A stretch of DNA of 35,125 bases from Candidatus Fermentibacterota bacterium (GTDB lineage Bacteria; JAFGKV01), in contig JAFGKV010000038.1 of the NCBI GenBank assembly GCA_016928395.1, positions 1 through 35,125 of the forward strand, in the 5' to 3' direction. How positions within the stretch are numbered: the first letter of the stretch is position 1; each line of letters starts with the position of its first letter. Made by a program: the position numbers and the translations under genes. Of the stretch, positions 6,951 to 33,074 are shown one piece after another. The notes below the pieces were generated by a model that did no database searches, was not told the origin of the DNA, and worked only from the letters and a program-made list of their open reading frames with translations.

Positions 6951-8069
6951 TCAGGACCGCGGTTCTTGCTCCAGAAGATGCCGCTGCAGAACAAGGCGAC
7001 ACAGCCCTTGTGCGGCTATGCGGTTTCCATCCTCCGTCCAGTGGCCTTCCCTGGGAAACAGGGGATCGGTTCCCGAAGCAGCCGCGGCACGAAAGTCATC
7101 GAGTAGATCCAGATACGGAAGTTCCATCGATTCCAGCAGTTCGGCCAGCCGTGAACGCGGCAAGGCCGGGTTCAGGTTCGCTCGCGCCAGCATCGGTTTG
7201 CGGCGGATGAGCCTGTCTACTTCGTCCGGGTAGATCGCCAGGCGGCCGGGCACCACGAGTATGCCCAGGTTCGCGTCGTGTTCGGTGACAATGCCGCGCA
7301 TCTCGATGAGTAGATCCTCCAGTTGCGCCCACATCCGGTTCTGGATTTCAGTGGGCGTGGCATGCCATACGTGGTACAAACCGCGGACCAGCGCCCGCTC
7401 GGCACGGGCGGAAGCGGGTCGAAGCAGCCGCGACAGAGGCGGCACATGCCGGGTGAGAGCGTGAAACACCGGGCTGACAGCCACGGCGTGACGGATGAAA
7501 TCCGGTGTCAACAAGGGAGCTGCCCGGTGGGGAGGAGGAGGCCATGGGGCGGCCGCCGGAGGCGGGGCGAGATTATCCAGCAGATCATTGTCGGGGAACA
7601 GGGCGAGCACCACGGCTGCGGGACGGTAGGTGAACGCCTCGTGCTGCAGGAAGGCAACCTGATTGCGCGTGCCCCACCCATTGCAGGCAGCCGCGGTGAC
7701 CTCCACCGGCCTGCCCACGGCCTGGGAGAGAAGCCGCTCGGTGATCTCCTGGCAACTGGCCTCCGGCGGCACCTGGAACGCGGCGATGAACGAGTCGCCC
7801 ACCAGCAGTACACCGTTGCCCTCTGACCACTGGTCTCTATCGTGCAGCCCCCGGCTGTTGATGGTAACGTATTGGCGAACCTCGCCTTTCACGTACCATC
7901 CCTCCGCACTCGGGATATTGAACACGCCATACAGAGGATGGGGGCCGACGAAACGGGTATCGGAATGGAGCCGAAGCAGGCGTATTCCGGCCTCGGTGAG
8001 CATCAGGGCGATACCCAGGCCGATGGTTACGGCGCCAAGCCTGAATGCAACGGTACGGAGGGTATGCAT
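6951..8069 (-). CDS. Membrane-anchored SGNH/GDSL hydrolase-like protein
   Basis: N-terminal TM helix, INSRGLHD, LVGDSF block I, C-terminal EGHWT..G block V. Confidence 0.8.
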   Translation of the reverse strand: MHTLRTVAFRLGAVTIGLGIALMLTEAGIRLLRLHSDTRFVGPHPLYGVFNIPSAEGWYVKGEVRQYVTINSRGLHDRDQWSEGNGVLLVGDSFIAAFQVPPEASCQEITERLLSQAVGRPVEVTAAACNGWGTRNQVAFLQHEAFTYRPAAVVLALFPDNDLLDNLAPPPAAAPWPPPPHRAAPLLTPDFIRHAVAVSPVFHALTRHVPPLSRLLRPASARAERALVRGLYHVWHATPTEIQNRMWAQLEDLLIEMRGIVTEHDANLGILVVPGRLAIYPDEVDRLIRRKPMLARANLNPALPRSRLAELLESMELPYLDLLDDFRAAAASGTDPLFPREGHWTEDGNRIAAQGLCRLVLQRHLLEQEPRS

Positions 8070-8235
8070 GGCGCACCATTATGCGGAACGTCTCCAGGAG
8101 TGCAAGCCTTCGTGCACCGGTATCTTGACCGCGAAGCTCGCCGTCGCGACACTTGCCCCGTCTGTCCCCTGATTGCTGCGAGTTTCGATGGCCCTCGGGG
8201 ATTCGTACGTCATGCCCCGAAGAGAGGAGGTGCCG

Positions 8236-8691
8236 GTGTCCGACATGATGGTGAGGTGTGCCCGATGCGGCACGGAGAACAGGGTTCCCCGCGAACGGCT
8301 GGGAGGCCGGGAGAGGCCCATCTGCGGCCGGTGCCGCGCACCGCTGGAAATCCATTCCGGGCCAAAGGAGTTGCACGATACGAGCTTCGTAGCCGCGCTG
8401 CAGGGTTCGGCGGTGCCCGTGCTTGTGGATTTCTGGGCGCCCTGGTGTGGCCCATGCCAGATGGTGGCGCCCGTACTGGAGCGCATCGCTACGGCCTTTG
8501 GGGACACATTGATGGTCGCGAAGCTGAATGTTGACGTGAACCACCGGACCGCCGCCCAGTACGGCGTCAGCAGCATCCCGGCCCTCCTCCTGTTCAGGCA
8601 GGGCCTTCTGGTGGATCGGCTTGCCGGCGCCCAATCCGAAGCCACAGTGGCCGACTGGCTCCACCACCACGGCATACGAGAGGGATCATGA
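8236..8691 (+). CDS. trxC: Thioredoxin 2 (N-terminal zinc ribbon)
   Basis: CARC...CGRC zinc ribbon, VDFWAPWCGPC; GTG 8236 after GAGGAGG. Confidence 0.92.
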   Translation: MSDMMVRCARCGTENRVPRERLGGRERPICGRCRAPLEIHSGPKELHDTSFVAALQGSAVPVLVDFWAPWCGPCQMVAPVLERIATAFGDTLMVAKLNVDVNHRTAAQYGVSSIPALLLFRQGLLVDRLAGAQSEATVADWLHHHGIREGS

Positions 8692-8893
8692 CTTGCACCA
8701 CGCGGGAGGGAGGGGTGGATTGACTGCGTGCGAGGCAGGAGCCGGCCGGTTGAGGGAACCCTGGCCCGTACTACGGTGTGCGATAGTGTTGACCCTGTAG
8801 CCGCCCATGACGGATGGGCTCGCGGCCCGCACATCCACACCGCGACACGCACCACACGTCTACAATGCGGGCAGGATTCTGTTTGGAGGAGTC

Positions 8894-9280
8894 ATGACAT
8901 TCTACATCGCGAAGACCGTGTCCTTGTCTTTTGACCGCGCCTTGGAGAAGATCGTGGGGGAGTTGAAAAAGGAGGGGTTTAGCATCACCGCCGAGGTCGA
9001 TGTTGCCAAGACACTGAAAGAGGACTTCGAGGTGTCATTCCGCCGCTACCGGACCCTGAGCGCCTTCCACCCGCTGCTGGCTCACCGAGCCCTGGAGACC
9101 GAGGACAAAGCCGGGCTTCTCTTGCCCTGCAACGTAATCGTACAGGAGGTGAGTGCCAGCGCGACCGAGGTGATGGCCGCTGATCCCCGGGCCATGTTCA
9201 CCGCGACAGGGAGCCCCACGCTGGAGGAGCTGGCCAAGCAGCTGGGGAACAAGCTGGAGAGCATTATCGGTCACGTGTAG
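8894..9280 (+). CDS. DUF302 domain protein
   Basis: LKKEGF...DVAKTLK, GLLLPCNVIVQE, DP motif; ATG 8894 after GGAGGAG. Confidence 0.85.
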   Translation: MTFYIAKTVSLSFDRALEKIVGELKKEGFSITAEVDVAKTLKEDFEVSFRRYRTLSAFHPLLAHRALETEDKAGLLLPCNVIVQEVSASATEVMAADPRAMFTATGSPTLEELAKQLGNKLESIIGHV

Positions 9281-9285
9281 ACACC

Positions 9286-10368
9286 ATGGCGCCAGCCACC
9301 CCTGGCCCGGACGCTCCGGTTGCGTGCCGTGTGTGCGGCGGGCCGGCCCTCTCGCGCACCGTGGGCGTGTGCCGCGCATGCCTCATGGCCGATCCCGCAG
9401 CCTCCGGGCGTATCCATGCAGTTCGCCGGGCCTCTCGAGCCCGGTTCGGCCTTCCGGAGGCGCCACCCCGGACTGCGGACGGAATCCGTTGCGCCGAGTG
9501 CGCCAATCTCTGCAGTATTCCTGAGGGCGCTCGCGGCTTCTGCGGCCTGCGCACCGTGCGAGATGGCCGCCTCATTCATCTCGCCGGCACCCCATCTAGG
9601 GGCTTGCTGCGCTGGTATCGTGATCCTCTTCCCACCAATTGCGTGGCAGACTGGGTATGTCATGGAAGCCGGCAGCCGGGCCGCAGCAACCTGGCGGTGT
9701 TCTACGCCAGTTGCACCATGGACTGTATCTTCTGCCAGAACTGGCACTTCCGGTCGATGTCGCCGGAGGGTGCCACGGTATCCGCTCGGGAACTGGCCGA
9801 TGCCGTGACGCCGCAGACCTTCTGCGCGTGCTTTTTCGGCGGAGATCCGGCCTCGCAGATGGGGCATGCCCTGGCTGCGGGGAAGACGCTGGCCGGCCGA
9901 GGAATACGGGTATGCTGGGAGACCAACGGCACCATGCATCCCCGGCTTCTTGACGCGGCCATGAACCTCTCCCTGCATTCGGGCGGCTGCGTCAAGTTCG
10001 ACCTGAAGGCGTGGGATGATCGGCTGCATCACGCCCTCACCGGCGTCCCCAACCGTCGCCCGCTGGAGAACTTCGCCCGCATAGGGGCCCGGTTCTCCCA
10101 GCGGCTTGACCCACCGCTCCTGGTGGCTAGTACGCTGCTGGTGCCGGGCTATGTGATGCCTGAGGAGGTAGGCGCCATCGCCCGCTTCATCGCTTCCATC
10201 GACCCTCGCATTCCCTATACTCTCCTTGCCTTTGCGCCGATGTACTTGCTGAGCGACCTGCCCGCCACCTCATTCACTCACGCCCGTGAGGCCGAAGAGG
10301 CGGCCCTGGCCGCCGGATTGGAGAGGGTGCGCATCGGGAACCGGCATCTCCTCACCGACGGCGTGTGA
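9286..10368 (+). CDS. Radical SAM protein (AmrS/PFL-activase-like) with Cys-rich N-terminus
   Basis: CTMDCIFCQNW (CX3CX2C), FFGGDP, ETNG, KFDLKA; N-terminal CxxC pairs and CAECANLC...GFCGLR. Confidence 0.88.
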   Translation: MAPATPGPDAPVACRVCGGPALSRTVGVCRACLMADPAASGRIHAVRRASRARFGLPEAPPRTADGIRCAECANLCSIPEGARGFCGLRTVRDGRLIHLAGTPSRGLLRWYRDPLPTNCVADWVCHGSRQPGRSNLAVFYASCTMDCIFCQNWHFRSMSPEGATVSARELADAVTPQTFCACFFGGDPASQMGHALAAGKTLAGRGIRVCWETNGTMHPRLLDAAMNLSLHSGGCVKFDLKAWDDRLHHALTGVPNRRPLENFARIGARFSQRLDPPLLVASTLLVPGYVMPEEVGAIARFIASIDPRIPYTLLAFAPMYLLSDLPATSFTHAREAEEAALAAGLERVRIGNRHLLTDGV

Positions 10369-10705: not shown

Positions 10706-10761
10706 GAGACGTGGTGTTCTCAGCCCGCACCGGAACCGATCGCAACTCAATGGAGGATTCC

Positions 10762-13700
10762 GTGGTTCGCATGCTCATGCCCGTGGTGGTCTTGGTCATC
10801 TCGCTGGTTCCTCAGGTCTGTGCCGCGGTTGAGGCCCTCGTCATTGTCCCGCAGCACTACGGAGCCAACGCGTTCTTCTACCTGAACGACTTCCGGCTGT
10901 TCGGCTGGCACATCACCATCACCGGCACCGCCGATACCATCGCGGCGTGTGCCGGTTTCGCCGGTCCGCTGGGATGTCCCCCTTTGGGTGTTGACCTGAG
11001 ACTGGACGAAATCACGGACATCACCGCCTACGACGTGGTTGCCATCATGTCCTCTGCCCAGCCCGGCACCTCGCCCGCGCAAGACTTGCTGAACAGCCCC
11101 CATGCCCTGGATCTGATCCACACCGCCGTCGATTCGGGGTTGGCGGTGGCTGCCTGGTGTGCTTCGGTGAGAGTGCTGGCGGCAGCGGATGTTCTGGACG
11201 GCGTCAGCGTCACGGGTAGCCCCGCCTATCAGAGCGAGTATGAAGCAGCGGGGGCCACTTTTGTGGGCGGGAACCACTATCCGGTGGTCGATGAAAACAT
11301 CGTCACCTGTGCCCGGGGCCGCTACTTCCATCAGGAGAACGCCAATGCCGTGGCCCGGGCTCTGGAATGCAGCCGGCGTAGCCAGCGCCATTGGGGAGCG
11401 ACCCTCGCTCCCCCGGCCGATCAGACCCGGAACGCGCAGGCTCGCGAGGAACCGGTGTGGTCGACCACCCTGGGCGGCAGCGGCAGTGATCTCTTTGTGG
11501 CGAGCTGTCATGCTCCCGACGGTGGTGTTGCGGCACTGGGACTTACCCACTCCCAGGGTTCGGGCCTGTCGGATGTCCTTTTAGCCCTCTTTGCATCCGA
11601 CGGGAGCGTGCTGTGGAGCCGAACCTATGGCGGATCAGGGTGGGAGAGCGGCGAGGCGATCTGTCCGGCCCAGGGTGGAGGGTACCTCCTGGCGGGAAGC
11701 ACGACCTCATCAGGCGCTGGGGGGCGGGACATCCTGCTGCTGCGGGTGGATCAGGCGGGCAACGAGGTATGGTCGCGCACCTTCGGGGGCACCGAGATGG
11801 ACCGGGCGACATCGGTGGCGCAGGGCTCAGATGGCTCCATCGTGGTGGCAGGCTACACCGAATCCTACGGCGCAGGGGAGGACGACGTTTTCGTGGTGAA
11901 GACCGACGCGAACGGCGCCGAGATCTGGACCAGGACCATGGGCAGCAGCAGCTCCGAGCGGTCGGGCGCCATCTCGCCTACTGCCGACGGCGGGTATGTC
12001 ATGACCGGCTCCACCGGAGGGTTCGGCGCCGCCAATCGTGATGTCTGGCTCGTGAAGCTTCGTGAGGACGGCTCCGAAGAGTGGTTTCGCATCTACGACG
12101 GAGTCAGCGGCGCGCCCGAAGCGGCTATGGACGAAGGCCACGCCGTGGTACAGATGGCAGACGGCGGCTATGCGGTGGCCGGCGTCAGCGACCGGCCCAT
12201 TCCCACCTCAGCCGGCGATCTCCTCTGCGCGTTTCTGATCCGTACGGATCACATGGGCACGGAGCTGTGGCGCCGAAGGTATGGGGAGAACTCTCTTCAG
12301 GATCACGCCAGGTCACTGGTGATGACCGATGACGCCCTGATCATGGCTGGTGCTACCACCGACGCTACCACCGCACGCACGGCTGCCTTGGTGATAGCCA
12401 CCGATCTCGAGGGAAACGAACTCTGGCGCTGCCTCGTGGACGACGAACACCATCAATGGGGCAACGCCGTCTCCCACTCACCCACTACCGTATGCATTGC
12501 GGGATACGCGGAGTCATACGCTGGTGACATGGATGCCTGGGTGGCTGGTCTCTCCACGTTGCGTGCGCGGTTTGGGGCGACGCCTCGATCGGGACACGCT
12601 CCCTTGCCCGTGCAGTTCTTGGACCAGTCATTGGGCGAGGCACTCTCATGGTCGTGGGATCTAGACGGCGACGGTATGGCCGACTCAGACGGGCCCGACC
12701 CCCTCTGGACCTATGCCGGCCCCGGCGTCTACCCGGTGACGCTCACCGTGGGTGACGGAGCGCAGACCTCCATCGCCTTTGAGGAAGACTTCATTCGCGT
12801 GTTCGACGGGGAGTCAGCGTTGGAGTTCAACGGTCAGAGCGGTTCGGCGATCTGCGCGGCATCCCCCTCGTTGAGCGTTGTGGATGCCGTCACCGCAGAG
12901 GCCCTTATCAAGCCCTGCGGCTGGGGAGAGGCGACAGCAACAGGGTATGGGAGGATCGTGGAGAAGACGAGCTTCGGGCTGTACCTTCACGGCCAGGGGC
13001 CGACATACAATGATCAGAGTCTGCTCTTTATGGTGAAGAATGAAAGCGGTCCGCCGAGGATCTGTGCCTCGCCGGCCAATTCCCTCATGCTGGACAGGTG
13101 GCAACACGTCGCTGTCGTGTATGATGCCGTGGCAGGAGTAGCCCTCTTCATCGACGGCGAATCGCAGGAGGTCACGTACTCGACCGTGCCCTCAGGCCCT
13201 CTCAGGGACAATGCCGGCATGGATCTGATTATCGGCAATACTGCCGCAGACAGCTACACCTTTGACGGCATCATCGACGAGGTCAGAGTGTGGCGGGTGG
13301 CCCGGTCAGCCGACGAGATCCAGGACGCCCGCACCCGGTATCTGAATGGTGACGAAGACGGCCTGGCAGGGTACTGGAGGATGAATGAAGGGTCGGGAGA
13401 TTGGCTGGGCGACCTCTCGCCCAATGGAAACACTGCGGCCATCGCCATCGCGAGATGGGCGCAGGGCGGGCTCCCGGCCGGTGTGGCTGACCACGGCGGA
13501 TCAGGCGGGAACACCCCCTCAGCTTTGACGCTCCTCTCCATAGCCCCCAATCCTTTCACCGACCGCACCGCGGTGGCGTTGCAGGTGAGGGTTCCCTTGA
13601 GAATCGAAGCCGCCGTGTTCGACGTTGCCGGGCGCAGGGTGCGCCGCATCATGCGCGGCGAGTTGCCTGCCGGCAGGCATGTTCTGGCCTGGAACGGGCG

Positions 13701-13797
13701 GGATGACCGTGATGTGGCCGTCGCGCCAGGCCCGTATGTGTGGGTTGTACGTGGCGGCGACGGATCGTTCAGCACTCCAGTGGTGATGAATCGGTAG
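10762..13797 (+). CDS. Secreted multidomain protein: signal peptide, DJ-1/PfpI, beta-propeller-like repeats, PKD, LamG-like, FlgD-Ig C-terminal domain
   Basis: Hydrophobic N-terminus after GGAGGA; VAAWCAS and VVDENIVT (DJ-1); repeated WSRTYGG/DGGYV..G; P..VQFLDQS..WSWDLDGDG (PKD); WQHVAVVYD, FDGIIDEVRVW (LamG); PNPF, VFDVAGRRVR, WNGRD, PGPY (FlgD-like). Confidence 0.85.
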   Translation: MVRMLMPVVVLVISLVPQVCAAVEALVIVPQHYGANAFFYLNDFRLFGWHITITGTADTIAACAGFAGPLGCPPLGVDLRLDEITDITAYDVVAIMSSAQPGTSPAQDLLNSPHALDLIHTAVDSGLAVAAWCASVRVLAAADVLDGVSVTGSPAYQSEYEAAGATFVGGNHYPVVDENIVTCARGRYFHQENANAVARALECSRRSQRHWGATLAPPADQTRNAQAREEPVWSTTLGGSGSDLFVASCHAPDGGVAALGLTHSQGSGLSDVLLALFASDGSVLWSRTYGGSGWESGEAICPAQGGGYLLAGSTTSSGAGGRDILLLRVDQAGNEVWSRTFGGTEMDRATSVAQGSDGSIVVAGYTESYGAGEDDVFVVKTDANGAEIWTRTMGSSSSERSGAISPTADGGYVMTGSTGGFGAANRDVWLVKLREDGSEEWFRIYDGVSGAPEAAMDEGHAVVQMADGGYAVAGVSDRPIPTSAGDLLCAFLIRTDHMGTELWRRRYGENSLQDHARSLVMTDDALIMAGATTDATTARTAALVIATDLEGNELWRCLVDDEHHQWGNAVSHSPTTVCIAGYAESYAGDMDAWVAGLSTLRARFGATPRSGHAPLPVQFLDQSLGEALSWSWDLDGDGMADSDGPDPLWTYAGPGVYPVTLTVGDGAQTSIAFEEDFIRVFDGESALEFNGQSGSAICAASPSLSVVDAVTAEALIKPCGWGEATATGYGRIVEKTSFGLYLHGQGPTYNDQSLLFMVKNESGPPRICASPANSLMLDRWQHVAVVYDAVAGVALFIDGESQEVTYSTVPSGPLRDNAGMDLIIGNTAADSYTFDGIIDEVRVWRVARSADEIQDARTRYLNGDEDGLAGYWRMNEGSGDWLGDLSPNGNTAAIAIARWAQGGLPAGVADHGGSGGNTPSALTLLSIAPNPFTDRTAVALQVRVPLRIEAAVFDVAGRRVRRIMRGELPAGRHVLAWNGRDDRDVAVAPGPYVWVVRGGDGSFSTPVVMNR

Positions 13798-13903
13798 GAG
13801 CTTCGCCAGTCCCGCGCCGTCGCCAACGCGCGAGAGCAATCGAATCCGGCCTCCGCCTGTGGCCTTGTGGCGTGGAGCCCAGCCTTCGTCTGGTTTTGGG
13901 GGA

Positions 13904-13923
13904 CTATTCTACTATTAGAATAG
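13904..13923. promoter_or_regulatory. AT-rich inverted repeat, possible repressor operator
   Basis: CTATTCTA-CTAT-TAGAATAG, perfect 8-bp arms in an otherwise GC-rich intergenic region. Confidence 0.35.
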
Positions 13924-14415
13924 CCTTTCGAGCGCTCCTTGGCCACCCCGAGTACTCAGCTTTGGATACCCTGCCGGCAGGAATTCGGGCGTCGGAACGT
14001 GCCACCCGCCCATCGCGAGAAGCACGACTCACATCGTGATTGACTTCGGCGACGAGGCTGCGAGTTTACTGGGTGCGTCATGTGACGCGAGTATCGTCAT
14101 CACACGACATCCTGCCACCCTGCACCTGAAGGCGTGGCCGCAGGGCAGCGCCGCAGATGCGGATCGCGCACTGGGGGCGGGAGAATGGGCCGTTCGTGTT
14201 TGCCGCGAAGGAATTCTTACGGATGAGCAACCAGACCTCGGCATCGGTGTACAGCGCGCGGGCTACGAAGATCTTCGGAGTCCTGGGCATGCCCTCCGCG
14301 TTCCCAGGGAACGGGCGCCCGTGCCTGTCGACTTCCGATCACCTCAGTCCCGCCAGGGTCGGCCAGATTCCGCATCCGCCGTATTCGGCGCGTTGCGCAT
14401 CGTGAGGGAGGCACT

Positions 14416-16605
14416 ATGAAGACCGGATTGGTGTGCATCGGCGCTCTGTTGCTTCTCAGTCCTCTGTTCTGGGGCAACGACAGTTGCATGGCCACGGAAG
14501 ACTTCGCGGCGCGCACGGGCAAGGCCTGTGCGTTCTGCCACGAGACACCCAACGGCGGACCGCTGCACCATGTCGGCATCGCCTATATCCGAAACAGCTA
14601 CCGTTACCCCATTCCTGAGAGGGTTCTTGCCAAGTCGGCGCGCCTGGGAGAGCCGAAGTCGAGGACGATCAGGCTGATCTTCGGCTATCTGCATTTGGTC
14701 GCCGCATGCCTTCTGGTCGGCACCATGTTCTACGTCCACGCGTTCGTGAAACCCTGTTCTCTGAAGGGAGGCATACCGAGGGGAGAACGAATTCTAGGGC
14801 TCATCTGTCTCGCGCTGCTCTTGGCGACGGGGATCCACCTCACCTGGTATCGTCTTGATTCCTTCGCGGCATTCTTCCAGAGCACCTTCGGTACATTGCT
14901 CTTCGTCAAACTGGTCTTGTTTGCGTGCATGCTCGTGTCGGCCCTGATCGCCGTCACCGTCGTACACCGCCGGATGCGCCGGGAGGCGTCCGCTCCTCCT
15001 TCCTCGCATACAGGATTCGCCAGGGGCGACCTGCCCTCGTACGACGGGCAGGATGGCAGGCCAGCGTATGTCCTTTTCCGGGATGTCGTGTACGATGTGA
15101 CGAACAGCCCGAAGTGGAAAGATGGCGGCCATTTCCGGAAGCATGGAGCCGGCCGCGACTTGACCAAGGCCATAGAAGGCGCCCCCCACGGCGACGAGGT
15201 ATTTGCCGGCATGCCGGTGATTGCGAGAGGGGTAGCCGAAGCCCACCCCCCGCACGAGGACGAGGCGATGAGTCGCGTCAGGAAGGTATTTGTCGGGATG
15301 GCATACGGGAACTCGGCCGCGGCGTTTTTCATCCTTCTCTGCGTTGCCTCCTGGCGTTGGGGATTCCCGATTCGCGTAGCGCCGACGGACCACACTCGCA
15401 GGGCCGCGGTCGCGCATAGTTGTGTGGAGTGTCATCAGAAAGAGAAACCCGGCATCTATGCCGACTGGCGTGGCAGCATGCATGCGGCCGTGGGGGTCGA
15501 CTGCGTCGACTGCCACGGGCTGCGCGACGCGACCGATCCCGTGGTGAGTGCCGCGCATCTGAAGAATTCCGCCACGCCAGTGTCCGCCCTGGTCACGCCC
15601 AGGCGGTGCGCGCAGTGCCATCAGGATGAGGTCGAGCAATATGGCAGAAGCAAACATGCCCACACGCTGGAGATCATAGGAACCATCGACAAGTGGATCA
15701 TCCACGGGATGAATAACGAGATTGAGCGCACCACCGGATGCTATGCCTGTCATGGGACTGTCGTGCAGTTCGCCGGGGGAACGGCGGCGGAGGGATCGTG
15801 GCCGAACGTCGGTGTGGGAAGGGCCAATCCCGACGGTTCGCTGGGCAGCTGTACCAGTTGCCACACGCGGCATCGCTTTTCCATCATCGAGGCGCGAAAA
15901 CCCGAAGCGTGCGGCCAATGTCACCTGGGCCCCGACCATCCCCAGATCGAAATCTACACCGAGTCAAAGCACGGCGCGATCTATCATGCCGAAGGCGACG
16001 GGTGGAACTGGAGGCCTGACGATGCGCAGTGGCGCGCCGGCCGCGACTACCGCGCGCCGACCTGCGCCGGGTGCCACATGTCCGAGGCCCCAACGGTCAG
16101 CACGAGTCATGACGTGACGGAACGCCTGGCCTGGGAGTTGCAGGCGCCCTTGACGGTCAGGCCTTCCGAGTTCGCAGCGTTCCCCGCGAAGACCTCGTGG
16201 GAGGCCGAACGAGAGAAGATGCGGCAGGTGTGCCTGCAGTGCCATTCCGAGGGATGGACCTCGGGCCACTTCCGGAATCTTGACCGGCTCATCGAGCACT
16301 ACAATACCGACTACTATGAACCGGTCCATAGGGAGCTGACCAGGCTGTACGCCTCGGGCCTGCTCTCCGAGGAGTCATACTTCGACGAAGACCTGGAATG
16401 GGAGTTCTACGAGTTCTGGCACCATGAGGGCAGACGGGCTCGGATGGGAGCGGCGATGATGGCGCCGGACTATGCGTGGTGGCACGGGTTCTATGAGACG
16501 AAACACCGGTATCTCACCTTCATGGAAGAAGCGGCGCGCCTGAGAACGCACGCTTCGCCGGCCCACCGGCATCTCGATTTCCCCGGGAGGCACCCGGCAA
16601 AGTAG
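14416..16605 (+). CDS. Fusion of monoheme c, CopD-like TM domain, cytochrome b5-like domain and octaheme HAO-family cytochrome c
   Basis: 9 CxxCH motifs (1 N-terminal + 8); 4 TM helices; b5-like YDVT..WKDGGH...HGAGRDLT...APHG; HAO-type CGQCHLGPDHPQIEIYTESKHG and WHHEGRRARMGAAMMAPDYAWWHG; RBS GGGAGG. Confidence 0.9.
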   Translation: MKTGLVCIGALLLLSPLFWGNDSCMATEDFAARTGKACAFCHETPNGGPLHHVGIAYIRNSYRYPIPERVLAKSARLGEPKSRTIRLIFGYLHLVAACLLVGTMFYVHAFVKPCSLKGGIPRGERILGLICLALLLATGIHLTWYRLDSFAAFFQSTFGTLLFVKLVLFACMLVSALIAVTVVHRRMRREASAPPSSHTGFARGDLPSYDGQDGRPAYVLFRDVVYDVTNSPKWKDGGHFRKHGAGRDLTKAIEGAPHGDEVFAGMPVIARGVAEAHPPHEDEAMSRVRKVFVGMAYGNSAAAFFILLCVASWRWGFPIRVAPTDHTRRAAVAHSCVECHQKEKPGIYADWRGSMHAAVGVDCVDCHGLRDATDPVVSAAHLKNSATPVSALVTPRRCAQCHQDEVEQYGRSKHAHTLEIIGTIDKWIIHGMNNEIERTTGCYACHGTVVQFAGGTAAEGSWPNVGVGRANPDGSLGSCTSCHTRHRFSIIEARKPEACGQCHLGPDHPQIEIYTESKHGAIYHAEGDGWNWRPDDAQWRAGRDYRAPTCAGCHMSEAPTVSTSHDVTERLAWELQAPLTVRPSEFAAFPAKTSWEAEREKMRQVCLQCHSEGWTSGHFRNLDRLIEHYNTDYYEPVHRELTRLYASGLLSEESYFDEDLEWEFYEFWHHEGRRARMGAAMMAPDYAWWHGFYETKHRYLTFMEEAARLRTHASPAHRHLDFPGRHPAK

Positions 16606-17223
16606 CCTGATCGCGTGAGGGGATTCGTGGGTGTGGGTTTCCGGATCGGGACGCGCGTCGATGTGGTCTGGCCAGGAGGCGGGATGGGCGCCCCTCGCCT
16701 GCGACACGAAGGAGGAGGAAGGGCAGGGGCGTGAGAAGAGGCGGTTCTCGGCCGGGGGTCCCTTCGTTGACCGGGTGCCGAACGGTCCCCGACTTCGCTG
16801 TCGCCCCGTGACAAGGCGTCACGGTTCGCCGATGTTCTGCAGGGGCTCGCCGGGTAGGCATACGAGACAGCGGCCCGGCCCACCGAATCAGGGACGCGGA
16901 CACATGCTGCCGGATTTGTGAATCGGAGTAGTTCAGGCAGCCTGGTACTATGAGTATCGGTTTCAGCTGTCTTTTCTTTCGTTCACGCCTTTGACCTGCA
17001 GACCCAGCGGGTAGTCGAGGGGGTGAGCGTGATGCGCTCTGCCCGCGCCGACTACTCCTGTGGGGTGTGGCATTCCTCAACAGCACGCCAGCCCGCAGTA
17101 GAGAGAAATCCACCACCACCGTCGCCAAGGGTCATTCAGCAGGCCGGGGAACAGCTCCGTGACGGCGGGCAATGGCAAGGGATTCGAGACTTCCACCCGG
17201 ACACAATGACGCCTTCCGTCGAG

Positions 17224-17238
17224 TGGCATAGGGGTTGC
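17224..17238 (+). promoter_or_regulatory. Sigma-54 (-24/-12) promoter
   Basis: TGGCATAGGGGTTGC, near-consensus TGGCAY-N5-TTGC, 36 nt upstream of ATG 17275 (RBS AAAGGAGGA). Confidence 0.8.
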
Positions 17239-17274
17239 CTATAGACGCAGCGGGGCGATGCAAAGGAGGACGTC

Positions 17275-19092
17275 ATGAACACCATGAAAGCTCATTCGAC
17301 GGAGATGTTCGGAAAGAAGATAGGGAGCAGCTGCGTATGGCGCGCATCCGGTGTGGTGTCCGCGCAGATGTGCGAGTCATCCCCGGATAGCTGCGAGGGG
17401 TGCCCGATCTATACGCGCCTTGGCAAGGCGGCATCTCATAGGCAGACTCAGTTTTTCGGCCGCGACTACTTTGATTCGTGCTCGGTCAATGCCTGCGCCG
17501 TCCCAGGCCAGTCGTGCCCGTTCGCGGGACCGTGCATGGCGAATTGGTCGCGGACCAACACTCCGGCGCTGCGGATGCTGACGATGATCGGGATCGGGGC
17601 TCTGTCCATTGGCGAGAACGCATCACTGATCCAGCAGACAACCCGTCGCACCGGTTTGCACGCGGATCTGGTGAGCAGGGTGTTCCAGTTGAGGAACCTG
17701 GTCATGCTGGGGCCTGAGTCGGGGCTGTCTCCCTCTGATCTCGCCCTGTTTACCGCAGAGGAACAGTTCGCCATGGTTGCCGCCGCGTCGTTTCTCGACT
17801 GCCTCGATTCCCTGGATGTGGCCGCGTTTGCCGAAGCCATGATGGAACGCGTACTCCAGCACGGAAACGGATCGCCTTCGCTTTCCGTGAAGCACGATCC
17901 TCCCGACCTGCGGGAGACTCTTCTCGCCCTGCAGGGTTTGGCCGTCTTGGATGTGCTCCCCGCGTTCGACATCGAGATTCTCGGCGAAATCCATGCCGGC
18001 ATGGCTGCCCTGCCGTACCCCTCTATGGCGTTGGCCCAGATGGCCCTCGCCCTTCAGAGGGCCATACAACCCGCGACCTTCAAATCGCCCGCCCTCGAAC
18101 AGAGAACCGTGGAACGCGCCGCCACTCTCGTCACGTTCGCCGATTGGCTGATGGGCAGCGTCTATGACGGTCAGCCGGTCACCTTCCCCGAATTGGCATC
18201 GGCCGTCATCGTGACCCGAACCTTGGGGGCGGTTCCCGACGATGGGGCGATCCCCGCCGGTCGTCTGCTGAAGGCCGAGCTGCTCCGAATGGTCGGAAAT
18301 GAGCGACTGGATATGAGCGGGGCGCACTCGCTGCTGGCAGGGATCGTGGCCTCCGGCGTAAAGCTCGACCCCGACGAGCGCACCGCATTTTCCCGGGCGG
18401 TGGTGCTCTCGTTCCAGGCCCATTTCACGAAACTCGGAGACATGCGGGCCGATCCGGTGTCGCTGATCGCCTACCTGGGGGCCGACAACCTAGTTCGTGA
18501 CCGCAGCCAGTTCGCGGCCATCGCGTCCATGGAGGCGCCCGAGGTCGAGGCCGATCCTGCATTGCTGGGATGCGAGCTTCCGGTCGATCGTTTCTACACC
18601 CGCGGGCATACCTGGATGCACCCGAGTCGAGACGGCGCCCTGCGGGTGGGACTTGACGATCTGGCGGGCCACTTGATCGGTCAGGTCGACGCAATCGAGA
18701 TGCCCGAGCCGGGGAGCCAGTTGCGCCGAGGGAAGCCGGCGCTGCGTTTGATCCGAGGCGGCGAGTCCGTCGACGTATGTGCGCCGATGGACGGCGAAGT
18801 GGTCCTCGTCAACCAGGCGATCATCGACGCCCCCGGCATTCTGCCGGATCAGCCCTACGACGGCGGGTGGCTGTTGTCCATTCGTCCCAAGGTGTCTGGA
18901 GGCAGTCTTTCAGGCCTGCTCTTCGGGGAGAATGCCCGAGAATGGCAGACGACGGAGGCGCGGCGGCTCCAAGAGATGTTCCAGGGCGACATGGCCACTG
19001 CCGCCGACGGCGCAACGCTGGCTCGCGACGCGCTGGCCACCATTCCCGGTGTTCGGTGGTCCAAGGTACTCCGCGCGTTCCTTACGCCGTAA
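17275..19092 (+). CDS. Cys-rich N-terminus, unknown helical region and C-terminal GcvH-like domain lacking the lipoyl lysine
   Basis: FYTRGHTW, LRVGLDDLA, APMDGEVVLVN, PYDGGWL; IRGG where GcvH has ESVK; N-terminal CVWRASGVVSAQMC-x6-CEGC. Confidence 0.8.
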   Translation: MNTMKAHSTEMFGKKIGSSCVWRASGVVSAQMCESSPDSCEGCPIYTRLGKAASHRQTQFFGRDYFDSCSVNACAVPGQSCPFAGPCMANWSRTNTPALRMLTMIGIGALSIGENASLIQQTTRRTGLHADLVSRVFQLRNLVMLGPESGLSPSDLALFTAEEQFAMVAAASFLDCLDSLDVAAFAEAMMERVLQHGNGSPSLSVKHDPPDLRETLLALQGLAVLDVLPAFDIEILGEIHAGMAALPYPSMALAQMALALQRAIQPATFKSPALEQRTVERAATLVTFADWLMGSVYDGQPVTFPELASAVIVTRTLGAVPDDGAIPAGRLLKAELLRMVGNERLDMSGAHSLLAGIVASGVKLDPDERTAFSRAVVLSFQAHFTKLGDMRADPVSLIAYLGADNLVRDRSQFAAIASMEAPEVEADPALLGCELPVDRFYTRGHTWMHPSRDGALRVGLDDLAGHLIGQVDAIEMPEPGSQLRRGKPALRLIRGGESVDVCAPMDGEVVLVNQAIIDAPGILPDQPYDGGWLLSIRPKVSGGSLSGLLFGENAREWQTTEARRLQEMFQGDMATAADGATLARDALATIPGVRWSKVLRAFLTP

Positions 19093-19624
19093 GGAAGTCG
19101 TCGAGCAGTATCCGGCAGTACCGGCACAACTGAGTGGACTTGGCGTCGATGCGCGCCATTTCCCGGGATGCGGTCATCACACAGGAGGGATCCGCGCAGT
19201 GGGTAAGGCCGAAGGTGTGGCCAAGCTCGTGGATCCCTTCCTTGATGACCCGGCTGATGAACAGGGGACGATCACACGGGGGTTGGGTTCCCCGCGACAG
19301 GTTGCCGAGGCGGTGTGTGGACACAATGGCGGCCTTTCCCGGGAGCATGGCCTCTCCGAAGATGTAGCGCAGGATGGGCGTGAAGAGGTCGGCAGTCGTA
19401 ATGCCCAGCAGCCGGACGGCATCGCGGTCTGACGAGGCGAGGTGCTCCAGGATGCGCGTGGCCTGATACTGTCCCCTGTGCATGTCCAGCGCGGAGACCG
19501 GCAGCTTCTCGGCGGCGCCGATGCGGCACTGGAAGGGATACGTCGTGGGAACCTCGGCACACAGGGATGAGAGAAGCTCCTGGTCCGTGATGTCCAGGGC
19601 GACAAGCTCAATGACGGAACTCAT
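19082..19624 (-). CDS. amzA: Archaemetzincin-family zinc metalloprotease
   Basis: RGQY, DLF..ILRYIFGEA, HELGHTFGLTHC, CVM Met-turn, CRYC. Confidence 0.92.
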   Translation of the reverse strand: MSSVIELVALDITDQELLSSLCAEVPTTYPFQCRIGAAEKLPVSALDMHRGQYQATRILEHLASSDRDAVRLLGITTADLFTPILRYIFGEAMLPGKAAIVSTHRLGNLSRGTQPPCDRPLFISRVIKEGIHELGHTFGLTHCADPSCVMTASREMARIDAKSTQLCRYCRILLDDFLTA

Positions 19625-20967
19625 CGCTCACGGGAGAGCTCGTACTTCTTGATCTTGGCGTACAGCGTCCCCCTGTCGATCTTCAATGCCTCGGCGGTAC
19701 GACTGATATTCCAGTCGTACTGCTCGAGCTTTCTGGCGATGAAGTCCCGCTCCCAGGAGTCGAGAGACTCATCCGCCGGCACGGCGATGTCGCTCTGCAG
19801 TGCGATGGGCAGGTCGTCGGGCATGATCCGCTTCTGTTTGCCCACCACCAGCGCACGCTCGATGGCGTTCTCCAGTTCCCGAACATTGCCGGGCCACGCA
19901 TGATTCAGTAAGAGCTGCATGGCTTCAGGAGAGATTGAGCCAACCCTCCTGTTCAAGCGTATGCACAGCTTCTCCAGGAAATGCTCGACCAAAGCCGGGA
20001 TGTCCTCCCTGCGCTCACGCAGGGGCGGTATGTGAATCTGAATGACGTTCAGACGGTAGTAGAGGTCGTGACGGAAGAGCCCTTCCTTCGCGGCCTGCTC
20101 CAAGTCGCGGTTGGTGGCGGCGAGGACCCGGAAATCAGTCTTCACATCCTTGACGCCTCCCACTCGCCGGAAGACCCGCTCCTGGAGCACTCGAAGAAGA
20201 TCGATCTGCATCTTCGGGCTGGCATCACCGATTTCGTCCAGGAAGAGCGTACCCCCCGCGGCAATCTCCAGTAGCCCTTGTTTGGATCTATCGGCCCCGG
20301 TGAAGGCGCCTCTTTCGTAGCCGAAGACCTCACTCTCCAGGAGCGATTCGGTGAAGGCGCCGAAGTTGACGCCGACGAAGAGCCCGTCGGAACGGGAACT
20401 CTTTTCGTGAATCGTGCGCGCCAGCACCTCCTTGCCCGTGCCGCTCTCTCCGGATAGCAGCACCACCGAGTCGGTGGCTGAAACATCCTCCACCAGCTCA
20501 AACACCTTCACCATGGCGGGTGATCGCCCGATCATCGGGCCATAGCTTCCGCACCTTCTTACCTCTTGTTTGAGCATCATGTGCTCTCGCCGGATGACCT
20601 GCTCATCAAGGATCCGCTCGATGAGCAGCCCGATCTCCATGGGATCGAATGGTTTCACCACATAGTCAACAGCACCCAGCTTCATGGCGCGCACCGCGGA
20701 GTCAATGGATCCGTATGCGGTCATCATGAGCACGGGAGTGTCGGGGTCTTCCTCTTTCACCCGCTCCAGCATCTCTATCCCGCTCATTCCGGGCATCTTG
20801 ATATCGACAATCAGCAGATCGAATGACTCTGTCCTGAGCATCTCCAGGCCCGGTTCCGCGGCCTCGGCTACCTCCATCTGGTAGCCGTCTCGTCGGAGCA
20901 GATCCCCCAGAGAGATGCGAATGGAGAGCTCATCATCCACCACGAGTATCTTTGTCTTCCTTCGCAT
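19621..20967 (-). CDS. Sigma-54-dependent response regulator (NtrC/AtoC/ZraR family)
   Basis: Receiver VDDE/DIKMP/KPF, GESGTGKE, GAFTGA, LFLDEIG, WPGNVREL, Fis-type HTH. Confidence 0.96.
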   Translation of the reverse strand: MRRKTKILVVDDELSIRISLGDLLRRDGYQMEVAEAAEPGLEMLRTESFDLLIVDIKMPGMSGIEMLERVKEEDPDTPVLMMTAYGSIDSAVRAMKLGAVDYVVKPFDPMEIGLLIERILDEQVIRREHMMLKQEVRRCGSYGPMIGRSPAMVKVFELVEDVSATDSVVLLSGESGTGKEVLARTIHEKSSRSDGLFVGVNFGAFTESLLESEVFGYERGAFTGADRSKQGLLEIAAGGTLFLDEIGDASPKMQIDLLRVLQERVFRRVGGVKDVKTDFRVLAATNRDLEQAAKEGLFRHDLYYRLNVIQIHIPPLRERREDIPALVEHFLEKLCIRLNRRVGSISPEAMQLLLNHAWPGNVRELENAIERALVVGKQKRIMPDDLPIALQSDIAVPADESLDSWERDFIARKLEQYDWNISRTAEALKIDRGTLYAKIKKYELSRER

Positions 20968-21014
20968 GGTCTAGATCTCCTCCGCCGGTGGCGCCGCGGG
21001 GGATGAAGCGACTG

Positions 21015-22937
21015 TCAATCAGACGCCACGGGCAGCGTGAACGTGAACGTGGATCCGTGTCCCTCGCGGCTCGTCACCTTCATGGTTCCGCCATGTTGGC
21101 GGATGATACCGTAGCTCACACTCAATCCCAGGCCGGTTCCCTGCCCCACCGGCTTGGTGGTGAAGAATGGATCAAAGATCATCGAAAGATGCGCTTCCTT
21201 GATGCCGCAGCCCGTATCCGTGATCGAGACCACCACCTCATCGTCTTCCTCCCTTGAGGAAATAGTCAGCGTGCCTCCCTCGGGCATGGCCTCACAGGCA
21301 TTGAGTGAGAGATTCACCAGTACCTGCTGGATCTGATTGGCGTCGGCCTGCACCGCCCGAAGACCCGGCGTGAGCCGCTCTTCTATGGCGAGCTTGTGAC
21401 ATTCCCGCTGATTGCGCAAGAGCAGCAGCCATCTGTGGATGACCTCGTTCACATCAAGCCGAGTCATCTCGCCGGGCGACTCCCGGGCAAAATCCAAGAG
21501 CCCCCGAACGATCTCTCGAATCCGGGAGGTCTCCTTGTGCATGATCTCGAGGTACTCCCGGCCCTTCGGGGTGATTCCCGCTTCGCTCTTCAACAGGTGC
21601 ACGAAGGTGAGCAACCCGGTGAGGGGGTTGTTGATTTCGTGGGCGATGCCCGCCGCCATCCGCCCGACCGAGGCCAGTTTCTCGCTCTGCCCGATCTGTC
21701 TGAGGGCTCTCTGTTCAAGAGCCTCCTCTCTCTCCGCCACGGCGTCGGCCATTTGATTGATCGCCCGACAGAGAAGACCCATCTCCCCCGGAGGATTCAT
21801 CCTCACCCGGGCCGAAAGATCTCCCTTTGCCACCCGGTCGGACATCTCGACTATCCGGCCGATGGGCCGAAGCACCGATCTGCTGGCCAGAGTCAGCAAA
21901 AGCAGGCTCAGCACCGTGGTCGCCGCGACCACCACGAGAAACGACCCGATGGCCACCCTGCGCGTGTGGACGAACGGCGTCTCCAGCATGCCGACCCCAA
22001 GGGCGCCAATGACTTGGCCTTCAGCATCCACGATGGGCTCATACGCGGTGATGTACCACTCATCCACCACCAGCGCCCGATCCGCCCAATTCTGCTCTCT
22101 CTCCAGCACTCTTCTGTTGACTTCCGGGCTCAGACGCGTGCCGATGGCCCGTGAGCCGTCTTCGTTCTTCATGCTGGTGGTAATTCTGAGGCCCCCCTGG
22201 AACACGGTTGCGGCTCCGGCCGCGACGCCCCGGTAGGTGTCGTCCTGGAACAGGTCCCCCTTGATCTCGTCGACGATCTCGTAACTCTGATTTAGAAGTC
22301 TGGCTCCGTAGAGGAAGCCGACGCATTCCCCTCCCCGTTCCAGGTCCACCAACGTGACAGCCGCCCCGATGACCATGCCATCGCGGTATGCCTCTTCTTC
22401 GCCGGCGGGGGTGATCGAATCGCCGGCTGCTTTCAGGGACGTCTGCCGCGAGAGGCTCTCTCCTTCTCTCACCAGGTTCTCCCACGGGATGATCGCGGTG
22501 CCCCTGACGCACTTCTTCTCCCGCAGAGCTCGGGAGACTATGGGATTGTATGAGGCGTCATCCCCTGCCTCAGCCGGGTTGTTCTCGCGGTAGATAACGC
22601 GGCCGCTTGTGTCCAGCAGGGAGAGCATATCCAGCTTTCCCTCCTGACGGATATGCTGCAACAGCCTCTGCAGCTCGGCGCGGTCCCAGCTCGCCAGCGG
22701 GGTGGGGAGCGAGCGTCGCGCAGCCGTTGCCCGCAGGAGCAGACAGATGTCAGTGACATTCCGGTCGTAGAGTTTCCTGGCCGAGTTGAGGCCCACGCGC
22801 ACCCTGGTCTGAACCTCCTCGGTGAGCATGCCACTTACGCGAAGCAAGATCACCAGTGACAGGGCGGCATTGGTAAGCAGGATGATGGCGATCGAACCAA
22901 CAGTCAGTCGAAACCAGACAGACTTCTTCCAACTCAT
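21015..22937 (-). CDS. Sensor histidine kinase (TM, Cache-like, TM, HAMP, HisKA, HATPase)
   Basis: Two TM helices, RAIGT/YEPI Cache-like motifs, AHEINNPL H-box, NACEA, DTGCG, FFTTK, GTGLGLS. Confidence 0.95.
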   Translation of the reverse strand: MSWKKSVWFRLTVGSIAIILLTNAALSLVILLRVSGMLTEEVQTRVRVGLNSARKLYDRNVTDICLLLRATAARRSLPTPLASWDRAELQRLLQHIRQEGKLDMLSLLDTSGRVIYRENNPAEAGDDASYNPIVSRALREKKCVRGTAIIPWENLVREGESLSRQTSLKAAGDSITPAGEEEAYRDGMVIGAAVTLVDLERGGECVGFLYGARLLNQSYEIVDEIKGDLFQDDTYRGVAAGAATVFQGGLRITTSMKNEDGSRAIGTRLSPEVNRRVLEREQNWADRALVVDEWYITAYEPIVDAEGQVIGALGVGMLETPFVHTRRVAIGSFLVVVAATTVLSLLLLTLASRSVLRPIGRIVEMSDRVAKGDLSARVRMNPPGEMGLLCRAINQMADAVAEREEALEQRALRQIGQSEKLASVGRMAAGIAHEINNPLTGLLTFVHLLKSEAGITPKGREYLEIMHKETSRIREIVRGLLDFARESPGEMTRLDVNEVIHRWLLLLRNQRECHKLAIEERLTPGLRAVQADANQIQQVLVNLSLNACEAMPEGGTLTISSREEDDEVVVSITDTGCGIKEAHLSMIFDPFFTTKPVGQGTGLGLSVSYGIIRQHGGTMKVTSREGHGSTFTFTLPVASD

Positions 22938-24872: not shown

Positions 24873-25252
24873 GCCGTATGCTCGCTTCCGATGCCCAGAG
24901 CGTATTCCTCGACGATAGAGCCTTCCAGAACATGACGGTCGAAGATCAGCCCCGCCTTCTTCTCATCGAGATCAACATACTTCACGGGGGCCTGGCCCAT
25001 GACCTGAACGGTGATCATCGGCTCTCGGCTGCAGTAGCCCGCACAGCCGGTGGAGGTAACGGTGACGTCACTGATGCCGGCGTCTTGCACGAGACGCATC
25101 ACCTCAGCCTTGATTCTCTGTGCGCCGGCGGAAATCCCGCAGGTGCCCAGGTGTACGGTGATTTTGACCCTGCCCGCGCCTTGCCCAACGGTCATGGCCT
25201 TCGTTCGCCTCGCCGCGATTGTCTCGAGATCTTCGATCTTCAGTTTGGGCAT
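24869..25252 (-). CDS. Thioredoxin-like [2Fe-2S] ferredoxin subunit (HydD/HndB-like)
   Basis: VHLGTCGISAGA, TGCAGYCSREP. Confidence 0.88.
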   Translation of the reverse strand: MPKLKIEDLETIAARRTKAMTVGQGAGRVKITVHLGTCGISAGAQRIKAEVMRLVQDAGISDVTVTSTGCAGYCSREPMITVQVMGQAPVKYVDLDEKKAGLIFDRHVLEGSIVEEYALGIGSEHTA

Positions 25253-25273
25253 TGATTGCCTCCGAAAAGGACC

Positions 25274-25771
25274 TCACGAGGACTGCGCATGCTTCCTCAG
25301 TTCTTCGACGATCTTGAGTGTCTTCACCGTCGAGGTATCGCCATGGACTTCGCCCGCCACGGTCACCACAGGTGCCAAGCCGCAGCATCCCAGGCAGCGC
25401 ACCGATTCCACGCTGAAAAGAAGATCCTGAGTCGCCTGGCCTTCGCGTTCCACCCCCAACTCGCGCATGACATTCTCCAGAATGCGCGACCCTCCCTTGA
25501 CATGGCAGGCAGTGCCGGTACACACGGCAATGGGATACTTTCCTCGAGGCTCCAGCGTGAATCCCTTGTAGAAGGTGGCGATGTGGAACACTCGATTCAA
25601 CGGTACATCCAATTCCTCGGAGAGTCGTCGAGCTGCCTCTTCAGGAATATGGCGATAGTGTTCCTGCACGTCTTGGAGCATCTCGATCAAGTAGCTGCTG
25701 TCGCGCTTCCAGCGATCCATGATTTCATCGAGCGGTGTATCGTACACCTGATTCGCCAACGGTTGTTTCAT
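25274..25771 (-). CDS. NuoE/HydC-type [2Fe-2S] subunit
   Basis: LQDVQ, ATFY, CTGTACHVKG, CLGCCGLAP. Confidence 0.93.
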   Translation of the reverse strand: MKQPLANQVYDTPLDEIMDRWKRDSSYLIEMLQDVQEHYRHIPEEAARRLSEELDVPLNRVFHIATFYKGFTLEPRGKYPIAVCTGTACHVKGGSRILENVMRELGVEREGQATQDLLFSVESVRCLGCCGLAPVVTVAGEVHGDTSTVKTLKIVEELRKHAQSS

Positions 25772-28070: not shown

Positions 28071-28085
28071 GAGGGTGCTCCTTTG

Positions 28086-28388: not shown

Positions 28389-28399
28389 TGCCCTCTCCT

Positions 28400-33073: not shown

Positions 33074-33074
33074 C

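Follow-up and report, generated by a model that had tools for sequence, protein, structure and literature searches.

How a periplasmic enzyme of the HAO family is supplied with electrons is normally a question about its partners. In the textbook view, multiheme enzymes of the HAO and Nrf types catalyse reactions in the periplasm and rely on separate partners and on the quinone pool. A gene at positions 14416..16605 (forward strand) of contig JAFGKV010000038.1 from a Candidatus Fermentibacterota bacterium raises the question of whether a single polypeptide can take over this supply. The whole 35,125-nucleotide stretch was analysed and is called the window below. The gene is a single open reading frame (ORF) for a 729-aa protein in which a signal peptide, a heme-c mini-domain, three transmembrane helices, a cytb5M domain, a fourth transmembrane helix and an octaheme domain follow one another. 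This design is real, conserved and widespread in anaerobic bacteria. The function proposed here, with about even confidence, is that of a self-contained electron relay that crosses the membrane without quinones and is fused to a periplasmic octaheme enzyme of the IhOCC/HAO type, most likely a reductase.

Nine CxxCH motifs lie at residue 38 (CAFCH) and then at residues 336, 363, 398, 442, 479, 499, 550 and 606, compared with a mean of 0.05 and a maximum of 2 in 2000 composition-preserving shuffles. Hydropathy marks residues 1-21, 83-113, 123-147, 150-187 and 291-319 as hydrophobic, and an AlphaFold2 model computed from a 119-sequence alignment contains four helices (limits in Table 1) with a small beta-rich domain between the third and the fourth. 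Confidence in the model is high for the whole protein (mean predicted local distance difference test, pLDDT, 88.9; predicted TM-score, pTM, 0.74) as well as for the N-terminal module folded by itself (pLDDT 88.3, pTM 0.78), and is low in the linker at residues 316-323. Aligned relatives share an A-x-A / TEEYA pattern, from which cleavage of the signal peptide is predicted before T27. Within the heme-c segment (residues 27-79), these relatives have no distal Met or His in common. The original prediction had described a signal-like N-terminus, the CAFCH site and eight more CxxCH motifs, and the motif and hydropathy scans agree with it; the three transmembrane helices, the b5-like domain and the fourth helix that it had proposed were recovered by hydropathy and by AlphaFold2.

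A word-indexed protein search returned 805 proteins at E ≤0.001 among 8000 scored candidates. The best 119 relatives listed are 711-805 aa long, 53-68% identical and aligned over 94-100% of the query, and nine CxxCH motifs are present in 122 of 124 proteins of 700-810 aa, with eight in the remaining two. A genome scan using one genome per species gave at least 590 pattern matches, of which 351 encode relatives. Among the best 80 of these loci, 74 carry the nine-motif gene; of the other six, two are cut by contig ends, one has a split form, and in three no target was returned by the ORF routine. One of the genes (DSCW_34050) lies on the finished chromosome of a cultured organism, Desulfosarcina widdelii PP31 (L018). 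Labels beginning with Desulfo- or Syntropho-, or naming Thermodesulfobacteriota or Deltaproteobacteria, are attached to 61 of the 80 loci, and six belong to spirochaete lineages.

The original prediction had read the gene as a single-chain fusion and had asked whether two genes might have been merged by an error near 15370-15420. An assembly or sequencing artefact of this kind can be regarded as negligible, since the architecture is continuous in the 119 listed clusters and at 74 of the 80 loci, including the finished chromosome; the lengths and coverage of the relatives thus rule out a merger, and the low-confidence linker is as expected of a flexible one. Database names of the relatives are all automatic (hydroxylamine dehydrogenase, CopD family protein, multiheme c-type cytochrome). 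A literature search, in which subscription journals were thinly covered, found no published description of an architecture combining cytochrome c, a CopD-like part, b5 and an octaheme domain, so that the fused design is apparently undescribed so far.

The octaheme domain was compared with solved chains using a family profile. The best match was IhOCC (4qo5, E 3e-79), followed by the reducing HAO Kustc0458 (6h5l, 8.5e-44), Nitrosomonas europaea HAO (4fas, 7e-42) and hydrazine dehydrogenase (HDH; 6hif, 4.8e-29). Foldseek with the model ranks the solved relatives in the same order and lists eleven HAO-family chains at E 1e-18 to 6e-10, and Pfam Multi-haem_cyto matches residues 478-651 with 107 bits. 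Between the heme-4 and heme-5 motifs, the sequence WPNVGVGR.NPDGSLG.C can be aligned to that of IhOCC with no gap. Tyr334, a second-sphere residue of HAO, aligns with a conserved Gln, Q576. D507 and H508, each at least 95% conserved in the 124 full-length relatives, align with Asp267 and His268 of N. europaea HAO, a pair named as functional residues in the accessible part of the HAO literature. These comparisons assign the domain to the HAO/IhOCC clade, nearer to IhOCC than to classical HAO, and the family assignment made at the outset is upheld by profile, fold and Asp-His pair alike. The hydrazine dehydrogenase model (NCBIfam NF052343) gives a partial match of 69.5 bits, below its curated cutoff of 900. 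Alignments to HAO end at chain residue 407, short of the cross-linking Tyr467 of N. europaea (Tyr449 in B. fulgida). The C-terminal 100 aa, used as query at E up to 10, gave no matches, and none of 30 related standalone octahemes was an HAO/HDH sequence that bridges to the cross-link position.

The direction in which such a domain would pass electrons was weighed next to this. Sulfate-reducing and related anaerobes of the kind found at 61 of the 80 loci bring periplasmic electrons inward via transmembrane complexes such as Hmc and Tmc, and this host range counts for an opposite reading, in which electrons taken by the octaheme domain from a periplasmic substrate, or gathered from the periplasmic cytochrome pool, would run inward via the membrane module to the b5 heme and a cytoplasmic acceptor, forming a redox loop that builds membrane potential. 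Nothing in the sequence fixes the direction, and with four Tyr conserved in the C-terminal helices (Y655, Y665, Y686 and Y693) the protein may have a Tyr cross-link. Such inward flow is nevertheless judged unlikely, though it retains some weight: among solved structures, IhOCC and the reducing HAO Kustc0458 are closer to the domain than the oxidative HAO/HDH enzymes, all 30 standalone octahemes score below 100 bits against the hydrazine dehydrogenase model, and the available part of Soares et al. (PMC9250108) places the origin of the P460 Tyr inside the HAO/HDH subclade, IhOCC having no P460. The same part of that source describes IhOCC as a nitrite reductase without P460, and the accessible text of Ferousi et al. 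(PMC8042395) describes HAOs free of the cross-link as reductases. A reductive enzyme is favoured because IhOCC and the reducing HAO are the closest relatives and are presented in this literature as cross-link-free and reductive; the octaheme domain thus most likely works as a reductase.

The N-terminal part of the protein also occurs without the octaheme domain. An exhaustive search of 1.84 billion cluster representatives gave 2988 matches at E ≤0.001, of which 236 lie at ≤1e-30. Among the best 150 of the 2988, three complete full-length forms were found. The matches also include many proteins of 420-610 aa that align with the octaheme part only, and at least 19 of 292-342 aa whose similarity is confined to residues ~10-320. 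These 19 short proteins are 31-47% identical to the module and end just past helix 4, and C38, C41, H42, H93, G102, H108, K165, W234, H239, H243 and H258 are invariant in them. Both Pfam CopD and Cyt-b5 match in 20 of 20 module sequences, and both forms have clusters in a protein atlas, of 57-129 members where the protein is ~300 aa long and of 68-112 where it is ~730 aa. At one locus (L080), a 327-aa module (7756-8739, forward strand) is separated by 153 bp from an octaheme HAO-family gene (8892-10139, reverse strand) whose 415-aa product has a signal peptide and is 26% identical to residues 335-714. By these sequence comparisons, the N-terminal ~320 aa is a separable, portable module that is found alone or fused, in keeping with the earlier proposal of a fused-on electron-delivery module.

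Pfam Cyt-b5 matches residues 210-263 of the module marginally (24.0 bits against a cutoff of 23.7). This score understates the domain, since residues 201-270 clearly match the solved 78-residue cytb5M chains 6nzx (E 9e-16) and 6vz6 (E 2e-14), on which the model superposes with target TM-scores of 0.83-0.86, a root-mean-square deviation of 1.2-1.4 Å and 42-46% identity (Foldseek). The available part of the preprint on these structures (10.1101/2021.11.30.470528) gives H42 and H61 as the axial bis-His ligands and H46 and S34 as heme contacts. With a one-residue numbering offset allowed, these four residues align with H239, H258, H243 and S231; in the full-length relatives the three His are 99% conserved and S231 at least 95%. 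The domain, which had originally been placed at about 15016-15220 and is found at residues 201-271, is by homology a cytb5M-class heme domain with both axial His intact, and heme binding is predicted. As a separate observation, three other proteins, P0195, P0209 and P0233, consist of several b5 domains of the cytb5M type in tandem, with six, four and three Pfam stretches, respectively. A role as soluble carriers of several b-hemes is conceivable for them, and nothing ties them to the fusion gene.

Heme c is attached outside the cytoplasm. Four helices lie between the two groups of CxxCH motifs, which are both outside, and the b5 domain lies between helices 3 and 4; it is therefore placed inside. 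Helix parity thus points to a topology in which all c-hemes are outside and the b5 domain inside, and in which the module by itself would hold one heme c on the outer face and one b5 heme on the inner face. In the original prediction the same topology had been drawn from helix parity and from basic loops; the parity argument stands, and the loop argument proved weak. A placement of the b5 and octaheme domains on the same side, which would have spoken against a transmembrane wire, did not occur, as helix parity separates them.

Between these two heme domains lies the membrane part. Conserved residues of the N-terminal third in the 124 full-length relatives are C38/C41/H42, Y62, Y64, H93, Y106, H108, C131, K165, M172, M187, the b5 set and C309/W313/W315. 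Four membrane His had been singled out in the original prediction. Two of them, H93 (YLHL) and H108 (YVHA), are at least 98% conserved in these relatives and invariant in the 20 module sequences; the other two did not hold, as H141 (GIHL) is replaced by Tyr in 94% of the relatives, while H184 (VVHR) reaches only 75% conservation and is not retained by standalone modules. H93 and H108 both lie on helix 1, 15 residues (~22 Å) apart, one near each membrane face. In dihaem membrane cytochromes the His spacing is 13-14 residues, which is close to this value.

Pfam CopD (PF05425) matches residues 127-197 with 40.2 bits against a cutoff of 32.1. It lies above its cutoff in all 20 module sequences, which favours a reading in which the membrane His bind copper and the module reduces or imports copper, or relays electrons via a copper site, with no b-hemes at all. 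The copper importers YcnJ and YebZ do share the CopD match on helices 2-3 and have functionally important membrane His. The match is partial, however: it covers profile positions 10-80 (71 of 105) on helices 2-3 only, so that H93 and H108 on helix 1 fall outside it. Unlike YcnJ and YebZ, the fusion protein has no CopC domain (no match in the protein or among the scanned neighbours) and has four helices instead of the longer canonical form. Heme domains on both membrane faces bracket the module, arguing for electron transfer, and a copper function is considered a slim prospect.

A second alternative keeps the hemes and changes the source of electrons. Reductases of the HAO and Nrf types usually obtain their electrons from the quinone pool, and H93, K165 and H108 may instead make up a site for menaquinol, from which heme c and the octaheme domain would be supplied in the manner of NrfH, NapC or CymA, with the b5 domain being accessory, regulatory or a second point of entry. 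The invariant polar residues H93 and K165 do lie at similar depth near the outer face, and no NrfH/NapC gene is conserved beside the fusion, so that another link to quinone would be needed unless the b5 domain is the entry. Conservation of the b5 ligands nonetheless equals that of the heme-c site, whether the module is fused or stands alone, which would be odd for an accessory domain, and no family of this type matches above its cutoff (Pfam Cytochrom_NNT, NapC/NirT, 17.6 bits against 24.1). A quinol dehydrogenase of this kind is regarded as distinctly unlikely.

If the invariant His of the membrane part ligate b-type hemes, bis-His ligation needs two chains, because H93 and H108 have no partner within their own chain, and a dimer was therefore modelled. 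Two copies of residues 27-325 were folded together with four hemes, using a custom alignment. The homodimer reached an interface score (ipSAE) of 0.68, compared with 0.08 for the best of three controls, the hemes not being part of the scoring. Of 30 proteins whose structures were solved as pairs, 20 reach the mark used for this score, compared with 1 of 23 whose structures are single chains, a calibration that is only rough here given the custom alignment and the included hemes. The runs share at least 52% of contacts, with a partner pLDDT of at least 71. The confident interface is symmetric, pairing helix 1 with helix 1' (98:98, 102:102 and 97:98), and also involves helix 4 and the first part of helix 2. 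The invariant G102 lies at the crossing point, with H93 five residues above 98 and H108 six below G102, at positions where two crossing helices would move apart. The model supports pairing of the modules as a homodimer and does not show binding, and its crossing-helix geometry could leave room for one heme on each side of the crossing point. HemJ, described in the accessible literature as a dimeric membrane protein with b-type heme, was tried as a relative of the CopD-like bundle; no Pfam HemJ match was obtained at E up to 1, no literature linking HemJ with CopD-like bundles was found, and it is kept as an analogy only.

From these observations a specific mechanism is put forward as part of the proposal that carries about even confidence; its boldest form, in which the module is a new kind of portable transmembrane conduit, is more doubtful than firm. 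The ~320-aa conduit would be a dimer of four-helix bundles in which two modules pair via helix 1, crossing at G102. The H93/H93' pair in the outer leaflet and the H108/H108' pair in the inner leaflet would each ligate one b-heme on the dimer axis, and these two hemes would wire the cytb5M heme to the c-heme without quinone. Electrons would pass from a cytoplasmic donor to the b5 heme, the inner b-heme, the outer b-heme and heme c, and from there through seven bis-His c-hemes to the catalytic heme 4. Heme 4 would then reduce a small periplasmic oxidant, candidates being nitrite, nitric oxide (NO), hydroxylamine or a sulfur oxyanion. The conduit would be used alone or fused to an IhOCC-type octaheme reductase, giving one polypeptide that reaches from cytoplasm to periplasm and has eleven heme sites. 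Outward electron flow would be driven by, and would consume, the membrane potential, which suggests a detoxifying or electron-sink role rather than energy conservation.

Several points weigh against the relay as proposed. For the membrane b-hemes there would be just two conserved His; each lacks a conserved partner within its own chain, and both are absent from the confident protein-protein contact list of the dimer. Foldseek with the module alone matches only b5 structures, and none for the membrane and heme-c part. The positive-inside bias is modest, with a mean of ~10.3 Lys plus Arg in the inside loops and 7.7 in the outside loops. The conserved membrane His of YcnJ and YebZ are, in the accessible part of the literature, needed for copper-dependent function and taken as copper ligands, and the four conserved C-terminal Tyr leave some probability for oxidative chemistry. 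The L080 pair is a single case whose genes are convergent, so that they form no operon. No cytoplasmic donor gene is conserved near the fusion gene across the 74 loci. There is also a conflict of symmetry: HAO-family enzymes are described in the available part of PMC8042395 as trimers or multiples of trimers, and a two-fold module (14416-15390) and a three-fold octaheme domain cannot both close in one complex. Pairing of modules from neighbouring trimers, allowed by the linker at residues 316-323, would resolve the conflict; otherwise one of the two oligomer states must be incorrect.

The neighbourhood of the gene was compared across the same 74 loci. No conserved partner gene was found: the largest neighbour cluster is common to 8 of them, another multiheme gene lies within four genes at 4 and a ferredoxin-motif gene at 3, and the orientation of neighbours is mixed. 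In that sense the gene is self-contained, as had been supposed from the start.

Comparison with known systems places the fusion protein between several families. IhOCC of Ignicoccus hospitalis is a membrane-associated protein held by a single N-terminal helix. It is the best match of the octaheme domain (Foldseek E 1.2e-18, TM-score 0.64 by target) and differs in that its chain of 521 residues lacks the module made up of heme-c, CopD-like and b5 parts. The second-best match is HAOr of Kuenenia stuttgartiensis (Kustc0458/Kustc0457, 6h5l), which lacks the cross-link, reduces nitrite to NO and does not oxidise hydroxylamine according to the accessible part of PMC8042395. HAOr differs in being soluble and in receiving electrons via a separate diheme cytochrome partner in a 60-heme complex, and it has an insertion of ~60 residues in the C-terminal region that is absent from the fusion protein. 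The oxidative enzymes HAO and HDH (1fgj/4fas; 6hif) share the eight c-hemes, the Asp267/His268 pair and the C-terminal helical domain, yet they are defined by the Tyr-heme P460 cross-link and use separate partners, e.g., cytochrome c554.

On the side of the module, the cytb5M proteins 6nzx and 6vz6 share the fold, the bis-His ligands and the Ser and His heme contacts; they are free-standing proteins of ~78 aa, whereas the fusion protein has the domain between two membrane helices. PuuD, a cytochrome c urate oxidase, likewise combines a membrane bundle with a periplasmic cytochrome c and has been proposed, in the available part of the literature, to transfer electrons outward from a reaction on the cytoplasmic side. 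Urate_ox_N gives weak matches in 3 of 20 module sequences, and PuuD is also a structural neighbour in the atlas. PuuD differs by its eight helices, its C-terminal cytochrome c, the lack of a b5 domain and other chemistry. Another fusion is BpMHAO from anammox bacteria (10.64898/2026.07.28.741245), a single-chain HAO fusion that, in the accessible part of that source, lacks the cross-linking Tyr and has reductase activity. Its partner is a soluble domain resembling laccase-like multicopper oxidases, with no membrane module and no b5 domain in the part available, and the combination of a laccase-like part with HAO is called there an unprecedented domain organisation.

The coordinates of the gene and of its parts are collected in Table 1.

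Table 1. Parts of the octaheme fusion gene in window coordinates; residue numbers refer to the 729-aa product, and helix limits are those of the AlphaFold2 model.
Feature	Positions	Strand	Remarks
Whole gene	14416..16605	+	729 aa; IhOCC/HAO-type octaheme domain at C-terminal part
Shine-Dalgarno-like GGGAGG	14406..14411	+	ends 4 nucleotides 5' of the ATG; read directly
Predicted signal peptide, residues 1-26	14416..14493	+	hydrophobic 1-21; pLDDT <50 at residues 20-26
Predicted periplasmic heme-c segment, residues 27-79	14494..14652	+	CAFCH 14527-14541; C38, C41, H42 invariant
Transmembrane helix 1, residues 80-111	14653..14748	+	invariant H93 (14692-14694) and G102; Y106; H108 (14737-14739); core of modelled dimer interface
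Transmembrane helix 2, residues 122-146	14779..14853	+	contains H141
Transmembrane helix 3, residues 157-192	14884..14991	+	invariant K165 (14908-14910), M172
Predicted cytoplasmic cytb5M-type b5 domain, residues 201-271	15016..15228	+	predicted axial H239 (15130-15132), H258 (15187-15189)
Transmembrane helix 4, residues 287-314	15274..15357	+	conserved C309, W313, W315
Predicted periplasmic octaheme domain, residues 331-713	15406..16554	+	eight CxxCH; three long C-terminal helices
Fourth CxxCH of octaheme domain	15739-15753	+	presumed catalytic heme 4
D507/H508	15934-15939	+	align with HAO Asp267/His268

A non-coding stretch of 618 bp lies 5' of the gene, and scans for promoters, terminators and Rfam families over 13700-17400 gave nothing above chance. 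Of the two flanking genes in the window, one encodes a secreted multidomain protein of 1028 aa and the other a 605-aa protein carrying an H-protein domain at its C-terminus; neither recurs beside the relatives. The former (10711-13797, forward strand) combines DJ-1/PfpI, beta-propeller-like repeats, PKD, a laminin-G-like domain and a C-terminal FlgD Ig-like domain. The latter (17275-19092, forward strand) has a Cys-rich N-terminus, and its C-terminal domain is of the glycine-cleavage H-protein type. A sigma-54-type -24/-12 site with one mismatch (TGGCATAGGGGTTGC) lies at 17224-17238 (forward strand), 37 nucleotides 5' of the 605-aa gene, and a sigma-54 activator and a Cache sensor kinase follow just downstream of that gene on the other strand (19621-22937). 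In the window, 27 matches to the -24/-12 pattern were found compared with 37 expected. Control of the fusion gene by sigma-54 was considered, as regulator and kinase homologues occur near relatives, but no -24/-12 site was found upstream of it and the idea was dropped.

Further along the window, a series of redox genes on the reverse strand at 23001-33100 encodes a NuoF-like flavoprotein, a fusion of a 2Fe-2S/4Fe-4S ferredoxin with a second H-protein domain, a CCG (HdrB-like) protein and two HdrA-like flavoproteins, which looks like an Hdr/Flx-type electron-bifurcating set with H-protein-like carriers. In a 669-aa protein at 4196-6205 (forward strand), a type I phosphodiesterase domain is combined with an N-terminal membrane domain of four helices, which is holin-like and falls just short of the Pfam cutoff.

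If the proposed relay is correct, one chain would link cytoplasmic reducing power directly to periplasmic nitrogen- or sulfur-oxide chemistry, a different solution to the partner and quinone dependence of HAO and Nrf-type enzymes. At ~320 aa the module is small and also occurs alone. It would be a tractable model for the passage of electrons across a membrane, and a first functional context is provided by it for the cytb5M and four-helix CopD-like families. Desulfosarcina widdelii, as a cultured host, makes the relay idea testable. The family is common in sulfate-reducing and syntrophic anaerobes, and it could affect the handling of nitrite, NO and hydroxylamine in anoxic sediments.

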